Source: a virus. Taken from it: DNA of 64,000 bases. This document shows, in pieces, positions 16,211 through 59,100 of this stretch (positions are counted from its first letter, which is position 1; each line of letters begins with the position of its first letter). The stretch lies in IMG/VR virus record IMGVR_UViG_3300035210_000189, positions 32,001 through 96,000 of that record. One strand, 5' to 3'. The notes under the pieces were generated by a model. It made no database searches, was not told the origin of the DNA, and worked only from the letters and a program-made list of their open reading frames with translations. The position numbers and the translations under genes are program-made.

Positions 16211-16834
16211 ATGAATGTCAATTCGGCTGAAACAGATAGCTTTAAAGAACTGTTTACTGTGTTCGCTAAGGAACACGATATAATGGTGGGGCGTTATTGT
16301 GCCGTAAAACTTCTCAGTTTCTACAATCATAATTTTGATCCTGTTATGCTCTTCCAGCTTGATGCTGATGTCGTTGCACCCTTGGTTTTAAAACCTTTTA
16401 AACATTTTCATGTAAAAAAGTTGGTCACACGATTAACCGATTTTTTGAGTGAAGTCGTTGAAGATAGTTTAGAGGGGTTTCTTGCTGCCAACTTCTTTGA
16501 TCAATTCACCCTTCACAATATTCAAAATATTGTCTTGAAAGAAGGTTATACCAGTGTTCATGATGTGGCTTATTATCAATTAGAATTGCTCAGCACATCC
16601 ACCCGACTTATGGTGAATTTTCATACTGAACCTGTTCAGCCTAGATTTTACAGAAATACAGAAATGAAGGGAACTATTAAATATCTCAATCTGGATGTTT
16701 ATTATCGAGATTTTGAATCACTCAGAGAACCCATGTTGGAACATTATGCTGATGAAATTGGTAAATTTCTCAATATTCCAGTGAATGAAATTGATGATAA
16801 TGTTTTAAAACTTGTTGAAATGGTTAAAATCTAG
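16211..16834 (+). CDS. hypothetical protein with C-terminal M-x-x-I tag
   Basis: ends VLKLVEMVKI*. Confidence 0.75.
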   Translation: MNVNSAETDSFKELFTVFAKEHDIMVGRYCAVKLLSFYNHNFDPVMLFQLDADVVAPLVLKPFKHFHVKKLVTRLTDFLSEVVEDSLEGFLAANFFDQFTLHNIQNIVLKEGYTSVHDVAYYQLELLSTSTRLMVNFHTEPVQPRFYRNTEMKGTIKYLNLDVYYRDFESLREPMLEHYADEIGKFLNIPVNEIDDNVLKLVEMVKI

Positions 16835-16914
16835 CACGTTTCTCGTTTTTTCTTGACGTGGAGTGATTTCTTTAGTATAATTACGAGATTGAAAATAAAA
16901 GAGGATTACACAAA

Positions 16915-18000
16915 ATGTCTACGTTTAAAGCGACAGTTCTTCCAGTCATTGTTGAGCCACATCCTAACGCTGATGCGATTGAACTGGCTCGCGTCGGGGA
17001 TTTCTTCTCGATCATTCAAAAAGGATACCTGAAAACAGGTGACTTGGCTGTTTATATTCCAGAAGGTGCCCTTGTTCCTGATTTCATTCAAGAAGAAGTG
17101 GGTTGCCTTGGTAAATTGGCAGGTTCCAAGAAAAACCGTTTGAAGCCTTCCATGCTTCGTGGTGTTCTTAGTCAAGGTCTTTGCTTTAAAGCCCGTGATG
17201 GCTGGGCTATCGGTGACGATAAAGCCGAAGAATTGGGTATCATCAAGTATGAAGCTCCTATTCCAGCCTCCATGAATGGTGAGATTTCTAACGTGGGCAT
17301 TGAAAACACTTTCCACTTTGACATTGAAAACGTCAAGCGTTACCCTGATGTATTGGTTGATGGTGAGCTTGTATCCATGACTGAAAAACTTCATGGCACG
17401 TTCACTATTGCTGGTAGCGTTTATGGTAAAGACCCTATTCCACATGTGGTTGATGGTCGCTCATTCGTGAGTAGCAAAGGTTTCTTTAACAAAGGCTTGG
17501 TGCTTCGTGACAACGAACAAAATGCTCATAACATTTACATTCGTGTTGCTAAAAAGTTCAATCTTTATGAGATTACAGCCATCCTTGCAGATCGCTACAA
17601 AACCAATGCTTATATTTCGGGCGAAACATTTGGTGCTGTTCAAGATTTGACTTACGGCTTGGATGCTGGCGTATTTGATTTCCGTGTCTTCAACTTGTTC
17701 CTTGGTTCGCGTAGTGATGCAAAAGGCGTGTTCCCAGTGGATGATGATGTGCTTGAAGCCTTGCTCACTGAGTTCAACTTGAAACGTGTTCCTGTGCTTT
17801 ACAAAGGCCCATACAGCAAAGAAGTCATGTTGAAATACACTGATGGGTTGGAAACTTACTCTGGCAAAGAAACACACATTCGTGAGGGTCTTGTTGTGGA
17901 ACCGCTTGTTCAGCGTCGAGATCCAGCCATTGGCCGTGTTGTCTTAAAAAGCGTTTCAACTGCTTACCTTTCTCGCAAAGGCGGCACAGAACTAAACTGA
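16915..18000 (+). CDS. RNA ligase, DRB0094/Rnl2-like family with N-terminal OB-like domain
   Basis: N-terminal HPNADAIELARV; nucleotidyltransferase motifs TEKLHGT (I), GETFG (III), FRVFN (IIIa), REGLVV (IV), LKSVS (V). Confidence 0.88.
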   Translation: MSTFKATVLPVIVEPHPNADAIELARVGDFFSIIQKGYLKTGDLAVYIPEGALVPDFIQEEVGCLGKLAGSKKNRLKPSMLRGVLSQGLCFKARDGWAIGDDKAEELGIIKYEAPIPASMNGEISNVGIENTFHFDIENVKRYPDVLVDGELVSMTEKLHGTFTIAGSVYGKDPIPHVVDGRSFVSSKGFFNKGLVLRDNEQNAHNIYIRVAKKFNLYEITAILADRYKTNAYISGETFGAVQDLTYGLDAGVFDFRVFNLFLGSRSDAKGVFPVDDDVLEALLTEFNLKRVPVLYKGPYSKEVMLKYTDGLETYSGKETHIREGLVVEPLVQRRDPAIGRVVLKSVSTAYLSRKGGTELN

Positions 18001-23117: not shown

Positions 23118-23882
23118 ATGTCCACTGTAAAAGCCCTTGTTATGAGCGACCTTCACCTTGAATACAGGAACAATATTAATATTCCTGTGATTGATGGTGT
23201 GAAGTTTTTGATCTTGGCTGGGGATATTGGTAGTAACCAGTCTCACCTTGAATTTATCAAAGACTGTGCCAGTAAATACACGGTCATTTATATCTTGGGT
23301 AACCATGAATTCTATGGCTTCACCTTGAAAGAAGTCCGTGACTTTTGGAACTCTGTCAAGATTGATAACTTTCACTTTTTGGATAACTCATCTGTGGTTA
23401 TTGACGACATTGAGTTTATTGGTTCTACTTTGTGGGTCGATTTTAATCGCCAAGATTTTCACACCATGTATAATGCGGCTATTGAGATCAAAGACTTTCA
23501 AAAAATCTTGAATGCTAATAATGATGAATATATCACTGCACAAGAAATTTATGAAGAGTTTGAAAAGTCATATGATTATTTGAAAAATGCTTTGTATGAT
23601 GACAATGGTTATGTGAAAGTTCTGGTGACTCATTATGGTTTTTCTCACCAAAGTGTTCACACAAGCTACCGTGACCATCCAGCAGATTTAAAGATGAACC
23701 ATTACTTTACCAATCATTTGGACAACTTTATTGGAAATTCGTTGGCTAAGGTTGCTATTCATGGTCATATGCATACTTCGGCTGATTACATGTTGGGCGA
23801 TGTTCATGTGGTGTGTGAGCCTGTGGGATATCCAGACAGTGTTAACCCAGAATTTCACTTTAAATTGGTTGACTTGAAGTAA
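23118..23882 (+). CDS. calcineurin-like metallophosphoesterase
   Basis: SDLH, AGDI, GNHE, VTH, HGHMH motifs. Confidence 0.9.
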   Translation: MSTVKALVMSDLHLEYRNNINIPVIDGVKFLILAGDIGSNQSHLEFIKDCASKYTVIYILGNHEFYGFTLKEVRDFWNSVKIDNFHFLDNSSVVIDDIEFIGSTLWVDFNRQDFHTMYNAAIEIKDFQKILNANNDEYITAQEIYEEFEKSYDYLKNALYDDNGYVKVLVTHYGFSHQSVHTSYRDHPADLKMNHYFTNHLDNFIGNSLAKVAIHGHMHTSADYMLGDVHVVCEPVGYPDSVNPEFHFKLVDLK

Positions 23883-31367: not shown

Positions 31368-32027
31368 ATGAACGAACATGTTTGTAAAATTAAACAAACA
31401 CTGCGTCAATTAGGCTTTTCACTATCAATTGTGGAGAGTCTAACTGATTCACACTTCCATTATTCAACTGAAAACGAACATTTCAAACACTCAAAATATA
31501 TTATTTCAGATTCTTCTAATATAAAAATTTTTGAATTAGAACTCTATGAATATAATGACTATAATACAATTAGTTTAAAGTTTGAACAGCAGCAAGAGAT
31601 TCTTAAAAGAATTAATCTTACAACTTATGATAAAAAAAATCTTTATCGTTACTGCACTCTTCATTTCGATAAAAAGTATGACTTCTTACACCTCAGCATC
31701 AGTGATGGCTTGGACATTATTACTGATAAATTAAAATATTCGTTTGACATTTTTATATGGTTTGACTTTGACATTAATTTAGATTTACAACGAATTAAAG
31801 TTTCTGGATACACTCATTCTGGAACTGAACTTTTATTTGATATTAGTAAGAATAAAGAAAATATACTTCCTATTGATGATGAACTCTTGTTGATTGAATT
31901 TCTTCAATATCAATATAATGATGATATTATTGGTTACGTTCCTGAGTTCTATATACCAGCCGCCTATGATTTCAATTCAGATGAATTTAACATCCGTATT
32001 TCATTAGCTAAAATGATGATTATTTAA
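31368..32027 (+). CDS. hypothetical protein with C-terminal M-x-x-I tag
   Basis: ends RISLAKMMII*. Confidence 0.75.
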   Translation: MNEHVCKIKQTLRQLGFSLSIVESLTDSHFHYSTENEHFKHSKYIISDSSNIKIFELELYEYNDYNTISLKFEQQQEILKRINLTTYDKKNLYRYCTLHFDKKYDFLHLSISDGLDIITDKLKYSFDIFIWFDFDINLDLQRIKVSGYTHSGTELLFDISKNKENILPIDDELLLIEFLQYQYNDDIIGYVPEFYIPAAYDFNSDEFNIRISLAKMMII

Positions 32028-32138: not shown

Positions 32139-33293
32139 ATGAACCTTTTTCCAAAAATCGAACACATCAACGATATTTTGCCAGCTTTGGCAGGTAAAAC
32201 CTATATCGGTGTGAACAAGCAATCTAACGGTGCAACCGTTCTTTGCTACAACATCAGCAACGGTGAATCTTTTGCTACGCCTTTTGAAAAAGAATGCCGT
32301 GGTATCACCTTTGACCGTGATGGTAAAATTGTAAACCGTCCTTTGCACAAGTTTTTCAACTTGGCAGAGCGTGAAGAAGTATTGCCACACAACATTAACT
32401 GGGATGATGTGGTTGCTGTCTTCGATAAGATGGATGGTTCTATGATTACTGCTGGTGTGTTTCATGGCGACGTATTTGTAAAATCCAAAAAGTCTTTTGA
32501 ATCAGATGTGGCTGTGTCGGCTTTGGCTTATGTTAAAGCAAACCATAAATACGAAGATTTCATTAAGCATTGTGCATCCTTGGATTTGACACCAATCTTT
32601 GAATACACTTCGCCAAACAACCGTATCGTGTTGCGTTACGATGAAGAAAAAATGACGTTGTTGCATGTGCGTCATACTATCAATGGTAATTATTTCATGC
32701 CAGATGAAGTGGCTGCATTGGCTAAGTCGTTTGATATTCCAGTGAACGCTCCATTGTTTGGTAAAGGTTTTGACTTGAAAGCATTGTTGCATTCATTGGA
32801 CACTGTTGAAGGGATTGAAGGTTACGTTATTCAGTTCTCAAATGGTAACATGGTTAAGGTAAAAACAACTTGGTATGTTAACTTACACCACGCAGTAACA
32901 TTCGTGCGTATTCGTGACATTGCTCGCTTGGTTTTATCCGAGAAAATTGACGACTACATTGCATTTGTTGCATTACATGCAAAAGACGCTGATTTGACTC
33001 AAATCCATTACATCAATGACACGATTAAAGCAGAAATTGAAGGAATCAAGAAAGACGTTGCTGATATTTTGGCTCAACATGAAGGTGTTGATTTCAAAAC
33101 CTTGGCAACCACCTACTTGGGTCATCCATATTTCTCTTTCATCATGACTACCGCTCGCGGTAAAGAAGTTGATTACTTGGATTACTACGAACGTAATCGT
33201 TTGAAAGAAGTCTGGTCTTTGGAGCAAGTTGACTTGGGCAACTTCACAGGGACTGATGATTCTGATGATGAAGTTCCAGTAGATGAAGATTAA
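32139..33293 (+). CDS. RNA ligase 1 (T4 Rnl1/RnlA family)
   Basis: ECRG, RPLHKFFN, KMDGS (motif I), FEYTSPNNRIVLRY, IEGYVI, VKVKT.WY. Confidence 0.9.
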   Translation: MNLFPKIEHINDILPALAGKTYIGVNKQSNGATVLCYNISNGESFATPFEKECRGITFDRDGKIVNRPLHKFFNLAEREEVLPHNINWDDVVAVFDKMDGSMITAGVFHGDVFVKSKKSFESDVAVSALAYVKANHKYEDFIKHCASLDLTPIFEYTSPNNRIVLRYDEEKMTLLHVRHTINGNYFMPDEVAALAKSFDIPVNAPLFGKGFDLKALLHSLDTVEGIEGYVIQFSNGNMVKVKTTWYVNLHHAVTFVRIRDIARLVLSEKIDDYIAFVALHAKDADLTQIHYINDTIKAEIEGIKKDVADILAQHEGVDFKTLATTYLGHPYFSFIMTTARGKEVDYLDYYERNRLKEVWSLEQVDLGNFTGTDDSDDEVPVDED

Positions 33294-56491: not shown

Positions 56492-56586
56492 AAAAATTAA
56501 AAAAAGGTCTTGAATACGGTTGAAAGGTTTGCTAGAATGGCTACATTGAATGAGACGACAGCTTCAATGTCACTCAGAATTGTAAC

Positions 56587-56708
56587 GCGGGTGTGTGAGT
56601 GTAATAGGAGAGTTGGCCTTCCGTCCTTGAATAAAGGTTGCTCTACCGTTAAGGCGTGCGTGCCTTGCAACATCGGTAACGTAGGTTCAAATCCTGCCAT
56701 CTGCACCA
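56587..56708 (+). ncRNA. 122 nt CCA-ended tRNA-like RNA with expanded interior
   Basis: acceptor GCGGGTG/CATCTGC-A-CCA; T-arm GTAGG-TTCAAAT-CCTGC; two long internal hairpins in place of the D and anticodon arms. Confidence 0.7.
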
Positions 56709-56839
56709 AATTGTTGTTGTGTTGAAACTTGTTTTATGCTACAATGATTTAAGTTGAGAATTAACCGAAATGCTGGATCATTTCTGTTAAAAGTAGGTGA
56801 TTCAGGTAGACCTAGCTTCTTCTCTTACTCTGAACCAAT

Positions 56840-56913
56840 CGGTGAAACGCTCAAATGGTGAGCAAATGGTGTTGTAACCATACTCGTGGGTTCAAGTCCT
56901 ACTTCACCGGCCA
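56840..56913 (+). tRNA. atypical tRNA / tRNA mimic (Thr-TGT-like, non-7-nt anticodon loop)
   Basis: acceptor CGGTGAA/TTCACCG-G-CCA; D-arm GCTC-AAATGGT-GAGC; ATGGT-GTTGTA-ACCAT; T-arm GTGGG-TTCAAGT-CCTAC. Confidence 0.6.
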
Positions 56914-56954
56914 AATTACTTGATTGTTGTGATGACTTGTGGTATAATCATCCC

Positions 56955-57202
56955 ATCAAACGAATTCGGAGCCTTCGCCATAGAGGGTTGGACAGCAGCG
57001 GTGTCGCGGGCAAGCTGTCACGAAAGGTGAGAATCAACTCCCTTTCATAGTAATGAAGTGCATCAGAGATGAGTTTTTCTCTTGATTAAAACGCTTGGGT
57101 GAAGCGGCCTTTGTTACGAACTTGATTGTCAATTAGCGAAGGAATTATAGTCCTAGTGGCTATGATTAAAACGGTTAGGTGGACTGGCCTTCGTTAAGAC
57201 CA
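56955..57202 (+). ncRNA. structured ncRNA, paralog 1 (5' module plus two GAUUAAAAC three-way junctions)
   Basis: TTGATT-N17-TATAAT promoter (56920-56948); motifs and covarying stems shared with 57250..57455. Confidence 0.65.
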
Positions 57203-57249
57203 AATTAAAAGGTTGTTATTTACAGGTGGTTGATGTATAATAGCGGTCA

Positions 57250-57455
57250 GTTAAACGAATACGGAGAACCACTTAAATGGTTCTGAATGGTAGCGGTGGT
57301 CGGGCGAGCCATTGTAAGAAGGAGAGGTGATTTCTTAGTCCCTCTCTTAGCAACAAGGGCATTGTGGGTGCTGTTTTCCTCGATTAAAACGGTTGGGCGA
57401 ACCGGCTCTTGTTGCAAACCCTATTCCAAAGAGTTGTCGATGACAGCTTTTTTTC
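57250..57455 (+). ncRNA. structured ncRNA, paralog 2 (5' module plus one GAUUAAAAC junction)
   Basis: TTGTTA-N17-TATAAT promoter (57213-57241); ends in terminator AGTTGTC-GAT-GACAGCT-Tn. Confidence 0.65.
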
Positions 57456-57479: not shown

Positions 57480-57692
57480 ATGATTGAGAATAACGAATTT
57501 GCAACTGAGTATGCTGGTCAGCTTGTTTCTTACCTGACGGCTGAGCAACGACAAGCTGTCTTTGCTCATATTGAAACGTTGTTTGATAAAGATGCCATTG
57601 CTTGTATGAAGGCTGATGCTCAGCAGATTGTTGAAATGCGTGCGGATATGGATCGTCGTCTTGCTGCAATGGACGCAAAAACAGCAGTATAA
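57480..57692 (+). CDS. small hypothetical protein
   Basis: GGAG RBS before ATG 57480. Confidence 0.65.
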   Translation: MIENNEFATEYAGQLVSYLTAEQRQAVFAHIETLFDKDAIACMKADAQQIVEMRADMDRRLAAMDAKTAV

Positions 57693-57707: not shown

Positions 57708-57782
57708 TGCCGAATAATCATAGGGGAAGCAGGTAACTGTGTAATCTATGATGTCGTAGGCTAGTCCCTACTTCGGCGGCCA
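57708..57782 (+). ncRNA. 75 nt CCA-ended tRNA mimic lacking a D-arm
   Basis: TGCCGAA/TTCGGCG-G-CCA; GTAGG-CTAGTC-CCTAC; one long hairpin ATCATAG..GCAG-GTAA-CTGT..CTATGAT. Confidence 0.5.
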
Positions 57783-57785
57783 GAT

Positions 57786-57898
57786 TTGCTGTAGGCTCTT
57801 GTAGCCTGTCCGACCGGGTTGTGACCGGGCAGAACCAGACGGTTCCCACCTTTGGGTGGAGTCGATAAGGCATAGGTAATCGGTTCCTATTACAGTGA
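57786..57898 (+). ncRNA. GC-rich multibranch RNA, possible Y-RNA-like fold
   Basis: outer stem TTGCTGTA/TACAGTGA; GCCTGT(C)CGAC/GTCGAT(A)AGGC bulged helix enclosing three short hairpins. Confidence 0.45.
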
Positions 57899-58273: not shown

Positions 58274-58432
58274 TCGTTCACACAGAGCAAGACCTGCATT
58301 AAGCTAAGACTGGCAGCTTGATACGGGAATTATACCGGCCCAGCGGTTTAGCAGAGCGATAGGAGCAATCCTTGACCGTAGAAGCAGTGATAATCGGTGA
58401 CTTGGTGGTGGAAATAGCAACCACATAGTACA

Positions 58433-58461
58433 AAAAAAAGACTTCTTCGGAAGTCTTTTTT
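58433..58461. terminator. bidirectional intrinsic terminator
   Basis: An-GACTTC-TTCG-GAAGTC-Tn between convergent units. Confidence 0.85.
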
Positions 58462-58467
58462 GTTTGT

Positions 58468-59100
58468 TTACATTTTAAATTTTCTTTTGTTTTCACTTTT
58501 TGGCTTTGGTGTTTCTCTGTTGGCTAACAAATTAATCCACTGCGTGTCTTCACGGCCTTGTTTGTCAGCACCATGATACAATTTCACATCACCAAACAAT
58601 TTCGAATCTTCAAGTATTTTTGATAATTCTGGTATGGTGTAGTAGCTGAAAAACCTTCCTTTTGGATCGCTAGATTCACCTTCACCACTTTTGAAGCTTG
58701 CATAGATCTTTCCGCCTTCTTTCATGCTGTCAGCAATTTTCAATAAAGTGGTTTTCAATTCTTCTTTGTTCAAGTGCAACAATGACGCCATACACCACAC
58801 ACCATCAAACTCACATTTCCAGTTTATTTCTGAGAAGTCTTTGTGTTCAACTTGTACACCAGAATTGCTTTTTGCTATTTCAACTAGTTCTTTGGAAGCA
58901 TCCATGCCTTGCACATTGAAGCCAAGATTTTTGAAAGCGATTAAATCACGTCCTGAACCACAGCCAGCGTCTAAGATCTTTGCCCCAGCAGGCATGTTCT
59001 TGGTAAATTCCTTGTGGAGATCGGATATGTCCAAGTTGATAGTGCTTTGAGCATATTCATCAGCATTCTTATTGTAGTAATCTATTGTCTCTTTATTCAT
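58468..59100 (-). CDS. class I SAM-dependent methyltransferase (Methyltransf_11/25-like)
   Basis: TIDYYN, ILDAGCGSGRD, GMDAS, FDGVWCMASLLHL. Confidence 0.88.
   Translation of the reverse strand: MNKETIDYYNKNADEYAQSTINLDISDLHKEFTKNMPAGAKILDAGCGSGRDLIAFKNLGFNVQGMDASKELVEIAKSNSGVQVEHKDFSEINWKCEFDGVWCMASLLHLNKEELKTTLLKIADSMKEGGKIYASFKSGEGESSDPKGRFFSYYTIPELSKILEDSKLFGDVKLYHGADKQGREDTQWINLLANRETPKPKSENKRKFKM

Follow-up and report, generated by a model that had tools for sequence, protein, structure and literature searches.

A candidate new family of modular structured RNAs built on a three-way junction in the tRNA islands of giant phages

Several RNAs encoded in the tRNA clusters of phages have remained without an assigned function. 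Among them are rnaC and rnaD (species 1 and 2) of T4, which the T4 record annotates merely as small stable RNAs with no function given and which are presumably co-processed with the tRNAs. GOLLD and ROOL, likewise without a known function, have complex folds and are in many cases encoded beside the tRNA genes of phages or prophages; at ~600–800 nt they are much larger than the RNAs described here. Classes of complex-folded RNA that combine an invariant junction with covarying stems have repeatedly proved to be riboswitches, ribozymes, or the cores of ribonucleoproteins. Here we describe two tandem units in a viral metagenomic record that, we are highly confident, are genes of a real, new, and modular family of structured non-coding RNAs that is absent from Rfam.

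The window analyzed, a stretch of 64,000 nt, corresponds to positions 32,001–96,000 of IMGVR_UViG_3300035210_000189 (G000), a 152-kb IMG/VR virus record labeled as "provirus," ~55% complete and with a GC content of ~35%. The record contains tRNAs, genes whose products match virion structural proteins, and mostly small ORFan genes. The window has genes for two RNA ligases, one of Rnl2 type and one of Rnl1 type (Table 1), a pairing which suggests that the phage has a capacity for RNA or tRNA repair; the closest protein to the Rnl1-type ligase is that of the 344-kb Ralstonia jumbo phage RsoM2USA (44% identity). Based on the virion structural protein matches, the RNA ligases, and the IMG/VR classification we consider the record to be of phage origin, and we interpret it as a giant-phage fragment. 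The same RNA family is present in a related phage genome of 437 kb, which is 98% complete. The Terminase_6C domain was not found in any of the five records scanned. The window also encodes a metallophosphoesterase, and outside the window (G000:C1:134700-146600) there are at least 14 paralogous ORFs of ~240–280 aa arranged in tandem, a homolog of which is present on a contig (G005:C124, positions 16248–17060) that carries a junction-only copy of the RNA.

Each of the two RNA genes (Table 1) consists of a head of three helical elements, P1–P3, followed by a three-way junction (3WJ) in which stem P4 is combined with the strand GAUUAAAAC and with two hairpins, P4a and P4b, the latter having a GGGYG loop. 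An earlier note on this sequence had proposed two sigma70 promoters with 17-bp spacers, and both are present where it had placed them, each with a TATAAT hexamer; they rank second and third among the 14 promoter-like sites between 56000 and 58500. The P1 hairpin, the P2 stem enclosing AGCGGTG..CGGGCRA, and the P3 hairpin that it had listed were likewise all found in place. Its view that the two units have a common architecture holds for the shared P1–P3 and 3WJ, but that architecture is modular rather than fixed, as unit 1 has two junction modules. The 5′ motif AAACGAAT(T/A)CGGAG occurs at 56958 and 57253 and at no other site in the 152-kb record, and the junction motif GATTAAAACGSTTRGG occurs three times (0.15 expected by chance). 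When aligned, the two units have 74–79% identity, and their single-sequence folding energies correspond to z-values of −3.1 and −3.8. The GATTAAAAC three-way junction was recovered by RNAalifold from the two window copies. A conserved helix closing the 5′ and 3′ ends was not found, though single-sequence folds propose one, and no further copy of the family was found in the 152-kb record besides the two units. Gene 1 has no terminator of its own, and transcripts from promoter 1 therefore probably read through unit 2 to the terminator of gene 2.

Table 1. Positions of the RNA genes, their elements, and other features of the window (numbered from its first nucleotide).
Feature	Position	Strand	Details
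Rnl2-type RNA ligase	16915-18000
Metallophosphoesterase	23118-23882
Rnl1-type RNA ligase	32139-33293
Promoter and ~122-nt tRNA-like RNA	56510-56712		promoter at 56510-56538
Third promoter and weak tRNA	56722-56912		TTGAAA-17-TACAAT
Promoter of RNA gene 1	56920-56948	+	TTGATT-17-TATAAT, TG-extended; counterpart upstream of the orthologue in L124, L114, and L162
RNA gene 1 (unit 1), entire	56955-57205	+	head and two 3WJ modules
Gene 1 head (P1–P3) and first 3WJ module	56955-57126	+	covariance model R1, 195 bits
Gene 1 P1 hairpin	56970-56989	+	AGCCTTC/GAGGGTT
Gene 1 P2 stem	56991-57019	+	GACAGC/GCTGTC; near-invariant apical loop AGCGGYG..CGGGCRA
Gene 1 P3 hairpin (optional element)	57022-57046	+	GAAAGG/CCTTTC; missing in two L121 copies
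Gene 1 3WJ module 1	57050-57117	+	P4, P4a, GAUUAAAAC, P4b with GGGUG loop; model R2, 72 bits
Gene 1 3WJ module 2 (extra copy at 3′ end)	57133-57197	+	followed by GACCAAAUU; model R2, 76.8 bits
Promoter of RNA gene 2	57213-57241	+	TTGTTA-17-TATAAT
RNA gene 2 (unit 2), entire	57250-57424	+	head and one 3WJ; R1 196.3 bits, R2 81.4 bits
Gene 2 P1	57265-57284	+	AGAACCA/TGGTTCT
Gene 2 P2	57286-57313	+	AATGGT/GCCATT
Gene 2 P3	57322-57346	+	GAGAGG/CCTCTC
Gene 2 3WJ module	57350-57415	+	R2, 81.4 bits
Intrinsic terminator of gene 2	57428-57452	+	conserved in L124 and L114
70-aa ORF	57480-57692
Untranslated, apparently structured stretch	57708-57898
Untranslated, apparently structured stretch	58280-58461
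26-nt terminator	58436-58461
Class I methyltransferase	58468-59100	-

The earlier note had also claimed that the stems differ between the two copies while their pairing is kept. In the RNAalifold consensus of the window copies there are 47 pairs, 14 of which are altered on both sides and none of which is broken. Across 12 homologs 97.4% of cells are paired and 31 of the 47 pairs are altered on both sides, a result that none of 500 shuffles reached, while controls with slid alignments gave only 40–48% pairing; in P1 all seven pairs are altered on both sides and pairing is complete (100%). A similar outcome was obtained for 19 junction modules (92.3% of cells paired, 17 of 24 pairs altered on both sides, 0/500 shuffles), although these cell counts overstate the number of independent events because they derive from ~7 lineages, several of which are close. 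Paired changes are evident even in L096, which is 97% identical to the window (e.g., GACAGC/GCUGUC to GAUAGC/GCUAUC). The transcribed strand was assigned as plus because of the many G-U pairs. All helices covary, while the junction strand and the GGGYG pentaloop stay constant. The invariant positions of the 3WJ are the closing A-U and U-A pairs of P4a, GAUUAAAAC, the basal C-G pair of P4b, and the G-G of the P4b loop, and those of the head are the GGAG before P1 and the AGCGGYG..CGGGCRA atop P2; GGYG is found in the loops of P2 and P4b alike. With the few lineages available, an exhaustive search of all pairs of columns supported no tertiary pairs or pseudoknots. Clearly, the shape of the RNA is under selection. 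We assign a negligible probability to the stretch being instead a diverged repeat in the DNA, a short gene for a protein, or a similarity due to chance: ORFs of 54–66 aa do overlap the units, but all four are interrupted by stops or frameshifts in relatives, the stem substitutions are compensatory, and the motifs occur far above chance. The stretch is not protein-coding. In comparison of the window with L124, identity is 88.6% over the RNA stretch vs. 73.6% over the adjacent ORF region.

Family members were identified by scanning sequence collections with the junction motif and then filtering by the covariance model R1. Two copies each were found on a 193-kb contig (L096), a 162-kb contig (L124), a 179-kb IMG/VR record (L114, the same as L165), and a 113-kb contig (L162), four copies on the 437-kb contig (L121 and L126), one on a 177-kb contig (L164), and a junction-only copy on a tRNA-rich contig of 46.5 kb binned with a Flavobacteriaceae MAG (L152). 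The carriers are ~7 giant-phage contigs (113–437 kb) or pieces of such contigs, and all members of the family belong to a small clade of giant freshwater phages. The L152 contig is considered a phage fragment because it shares ~8 protein families with G000, and it is probably a piece of a related giant phage. This contig (G005:C124, L213–L215) has a GC content of 31.7% and encodes 12 tRNAs including a suppressor tRNA(CUA); its phage possibly recodes TAG. The L114/L165 pair of RNAs, with identical model scores, is also present on the metagenome contig Ga0308158_10000001, which is presumably the parent of the 179-kb "provirus." Its listed length of 1,859,102 bp far exceeds that of any phage known to us, and the contig may be a chimeric assembly, a host that carries an integrated element, or neither of these.

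The 3WJ is present in every member and represents the core of the family, with three copies in the window phage and four in the 437-kb relative. The head is more variable: two L121 copies have no P3, and the head of L126 is of another kind that lacks the P2 motif. Gene 1 of the window and its orthologs have two junctions each, and L152 has the 3WJ alone. The conserved core is therefore the 3WJ rather than the whole ~170 nt, and the description in the earlier note is refined in this respect, as well as by the separable modules and the phage tRNA-island habitat. Beyond these members the searches were negative. A blastn search in sensitive "distant" mode with a 581-nt query had no matches in 50,697 phage records, and a corrected head pattern and a relaxed junction pattern identified no further lineage in IMG/VR. 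The motif was not found in a folded context in isolate bacterial genomes, and all matches in the genome collections but L152 were coincidences within coding sequences; a first, too loose collection pattern had produced at least 119 matches, of which L096 was the sole real one. The junction module (model R2) was also absent from the Ralstonia phage RsoM2USA.

The members have shared expression signals. A TTGNNN-N16-18-TANNNT sequence lies upstream of the first model-matched position in 14 of the 14 members examined (at 3–32 nt, and within 8 nt in 13 of them), and in nine of the 14 a TG precedes the −10 hexamer. Terminators are located 3′ of window gene 2 and of L126. The gene orders place the RNAs beside tRNAs: L121 reads RNA-RNA-tRNA-Cys-terminator, its tRNA being ~13 nt from the last helix; L164 reads RNA-tRNA-Met, with a gap of 8 nt; and in L152 tRNA-Asn and a suppressor tRNA lie ~75 nt beyond the 3WJ. 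The window units are flanked by promoter-driven tRNA-like RNAs, and a tRNA-Cys lies 3.3 kb upstream.

Several features of the island merit description in their own right. In the ~122-nt tRNA-like RNA upstream of gene 1 the acceptor stem is of 7 bp, the T arm (GTAGGTTCAAATCCTGC) is canonical, and ACCA is encoded, but a long insert replaces the normal D and anticodon arms; in L124 and L114 this RNA directly adjoins the promoter of RNA gene 1. Between the two in the window is a third promoter, followed after ~80 nt by a weak tRNA (Rfam 34 bits, no ARAGORN call) whose position 8 is A, whose anticodon loop is odd, and whose CCA is encoded. Both L124 and L114 lack the segment 56725–56885. Downstream of the terminator of gene 2 is a 70-aa ORF, preceded by a Shine-Dalgarno sequence and without a family match, and beyond it are two further untranslated and apparently structured stretches, the second of which ends in a 26-nt terminator identical to one after tRNA-Cys in the 437-kb phage (L121 847–872). 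A class I methyltransferase gene on the minus strand adjoins the island. An all-against-all comparison of neighboring ORFs identified no consistently adjacent protein family, only scattered shared ORFans, and comparison of the neighboring ORFs with PHROGs and Pfam gave no identification.

The proposal in the earlier note that the units represent an undescribed class of structured RNA is well supported by the covariation in the homologs of other phage contigs and by the results with Rfam 15. No model, whether for tRNA, tmRNA, SRP, 6S, RNase P, riboswitches, ribozymes, pRNA, GOLLD/ROOL, CRISPR repeats, or any other family, matched the region 56949–57455 at gathering score, nor at E ≤ 10 with lax filters, and Rfam finds only tRNAs within the window. 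For the P3-less copies and the junction-only copy there was also nothing at E ≤ 10 other than chance matches of snoRNA or frameshift type (E > 0.3). ARAGORN did not call the units. A full-text literature search for GAUUAAAAC and GATTAAAAC returned nothing relevant, in a comparison that excludes the 8,495 unnamed candidates of the IMG/VR structured-RNA survey PMC10690425.

Individual known families were also considered and rejected. When R1 was run with filters off on the T4 tRNA cluster, the best match had 5.1 bits (E 0.46) and lay outside rnaC and rnaD. A bacterial Y RNA (YrlA) was rejected on the basis that there is no Ro60 (TROVE) domain in G000–G004 and no YrlA match on the units, and an RNA of a retron, DGR, or DRT on the basis that no reverse transcriptase (PF00078) is encoded in any of the five records, the 98% complete genome of 437 kb among them. 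A ToxI-like RNA of a type III toxin-antitoxin system was discarded since the modules differ and covary and the downstream 70-aa ORF has no family match. The likeness to the 530 loop of 16S rRNA falls in the covarying P2 stem and has no Rfam model support, and there is likewise no such support for likenesses to the 16S 3′ end/anti-SD, the SRP Alu loops, RNase P J11/12, or the 8-nt CRISPR tag AUUGAAAC.

As to what the RNAs do, we consider it on balance probable that they are a new family of stable, trans-acting RNAs that are matured together with the neighboring tRNAs. In L121 and L164 the 3′ end of the RNA would be generated when RNase P cuts the following tRNA at its 5′ end, and for the RNAs of window gene 2 and L126 it would be set by the terminator. 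The RNAs would then accumulate as stable products and act in trans, the repeated 3WJ offering a surface of invariant junction and loop. This surface could bind a partner and titrate or scaffold it, most likely a protein of tRNA or RNA metabolism or a host defense factor. We propose such a binding platform or decoy only tentatively as the mechanism, reasoning from the sequences, and favor it because conservation of nucleotides is concentrated in the junction and loops, with the stems showing only covariation, and because each genome has three to four copies of the module. This distribution of conservation is characteristic of a specific binding surface; however, the high proportion of conserved nucleotides in the junction would suit a ligand aptamer or a ribozyme equally well.

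One alternative is that each 3WJ is a tRNA-derived mimic, that is, an armless tRNA-like RNA released by RNase P or RNase Z to serve as a decoy or as a substrate for enzymes that read the elbow or acceptor. P4 would then correspond to an acceptor-like stem, P4a to the anticodon arm, UAAAA to the variable loop, and P4b to a 5-bp T-arm analog. The topology and size (~65–75 nt) do fit a tRNA without a D arm, the P4b stem has 5 bp, the modules occur in tandem as tRNA genes do and among tRNAs and aberrant tRNA-like RNAs, the GACCAAAUU after module 2 provides the same CCAAAUU context as found in the two upstream tRNA-like RNAs, and the phage encodes Rnl1- and Rnl2-type ligases. Nevertheless, both the Rfam tRNA model (even at E ≤ 10) and ARAGORN miss the modules, the P4b loop is a 5-nt GGGYG rather than a 7-nt T-loop, P4 has 9–11 bp and not 7, the P4a loop varies in both length and sequence so that no anticodon loop is mimicked, and most tails are RAAC(Y)U, not NCCA. 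Identity as a tRNA or tRNA-like RNA was rejected on the same loops, tails, and tRNA-model result, and we regard the mimic as unlikely. Less probable again is a cis-acting leader or riboswitch, in which the fold would act as a sensor for a ligand or factor and regulate read-through to the tRNA or 70-aa ORF that lies downstream. The order at window gene 2 (promoter, structured domain, terminator, Shine-Dalgarno sequence, ORF) is in keeping with this, and aptamers typically combine conserved nucleotides at the junction with stems that covary. What lies downstream varies by member, from a further promoter or a tRNA to a plain terminator or unrelated ORFs, with no constant gene set, and membership of a riboswitch or cis leader family was rejected on this ground; moreover, no alternative antiterminator pairing with the terminator was seen on inspection, neither module 2 of gene 1 nor the module of L152 has any expression platform, and the 70-aa ORF is unlinked to the RNA in L121, L126, L152, and L164.

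A compact multi-helix fold with an invariant junction, located in transcripts that need to be cut into pieces, could also belong to a ribozyme, with the 3WJ alone or the head plus 3WJ being self-cleaving or otherwise catalytic and punctuating polycistronic RNA/tRNA transcripts. Phage tRNA regions are known to harbor self-cleaving ribozymes, such as the HDV-like theta ribozymes beside phage tRNAs. Here no Rfam ribozyme model matched, the core motifs of the hammerhead, twister, pistol, hatchet, and HDV ribozymes were absent by inspection, no pseudoknot was supported, and RNase P already explains the tRNA-proximal cut, making catalysis as improbable as control in cis. The aptamer-like conservation would also fit a sponge, a repeated and highly expressed 3WJ that sequesters a metabolite or an immune signaling nucleotide in trans, and the several copies, each with a strong promoter and without an expression platform, are in keeping with this. 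Yet the idea is pure inference, the gene context suggests no ligand, and we know of no precedent for RNA sponges of this small-molecule kind, and so we judge it very improbable. A broader reading, which we rate as unlikely, is that the ~70-nt 3WJ is a self-contained RNA of a new biochemical class, either a trans-acting aptamer or a new ribozyme that processes the island transcripts; in the aptamer version, giant phages would use it to soak up a small molecule or host factor, for instance an immune signal or a tRNA-directed defense enzyme.

Whether as the binding platform that we favor or otherwise, the family adds a giant-phage-specific, complex-folded RNA with a physical link to tRNA islands. 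It is rare (~7 contigs, no cultured phage), and no described family has its defining features. The small, repeated, and separable ~70-nt 3WJ is unusually tractable for probing, structure determination, and pull-downs, and could reveal what the tRNA-associated RNAs of phages do.

In comparison to known systems, the family resembles tRNAs, armless mitochondrial tRNAs, YrlA, and the tRNA-like domain of tmRNA in having a tRNA-sized junction of three helices, one hairpin of which resembles a T arm of 5 bp, and in occurring in tRNA arrays, but it has no T-loop, 7-nt anticodon loop, 7-bp acceptor stem, or NCCA end, and the Rfam models for tRNA, YrlA, and tmRNA had no match on the units. The likeness to sponge RNAs of the CsrB/RsmZ type is in the repetition of a loop motif on several hairpins or modules of a promoter-driven, terminator-ended RNA. 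It relates to the proposed mode of action only, as those RNAs present GGA in simple hairpins whereas GGYG is in a structured junction here. The Rfam models of GOLLD and ROOL were unmatched, and no sequence motif is common to them and the present family. The closest known system is T4 rnaC/rnaD, by context only, in that these are small non-coding RNAs that lie inside the tRNA cluster of a large phage and abut a tRNA. T4 rnaC ends in a canonical T-arm and an acceptor-like stem, both of which are absent from the present family, and there is no homology in sequence or structure; in contrast to the T4 RNAs, those described here have their own promoters and a repeated 3WJ module.
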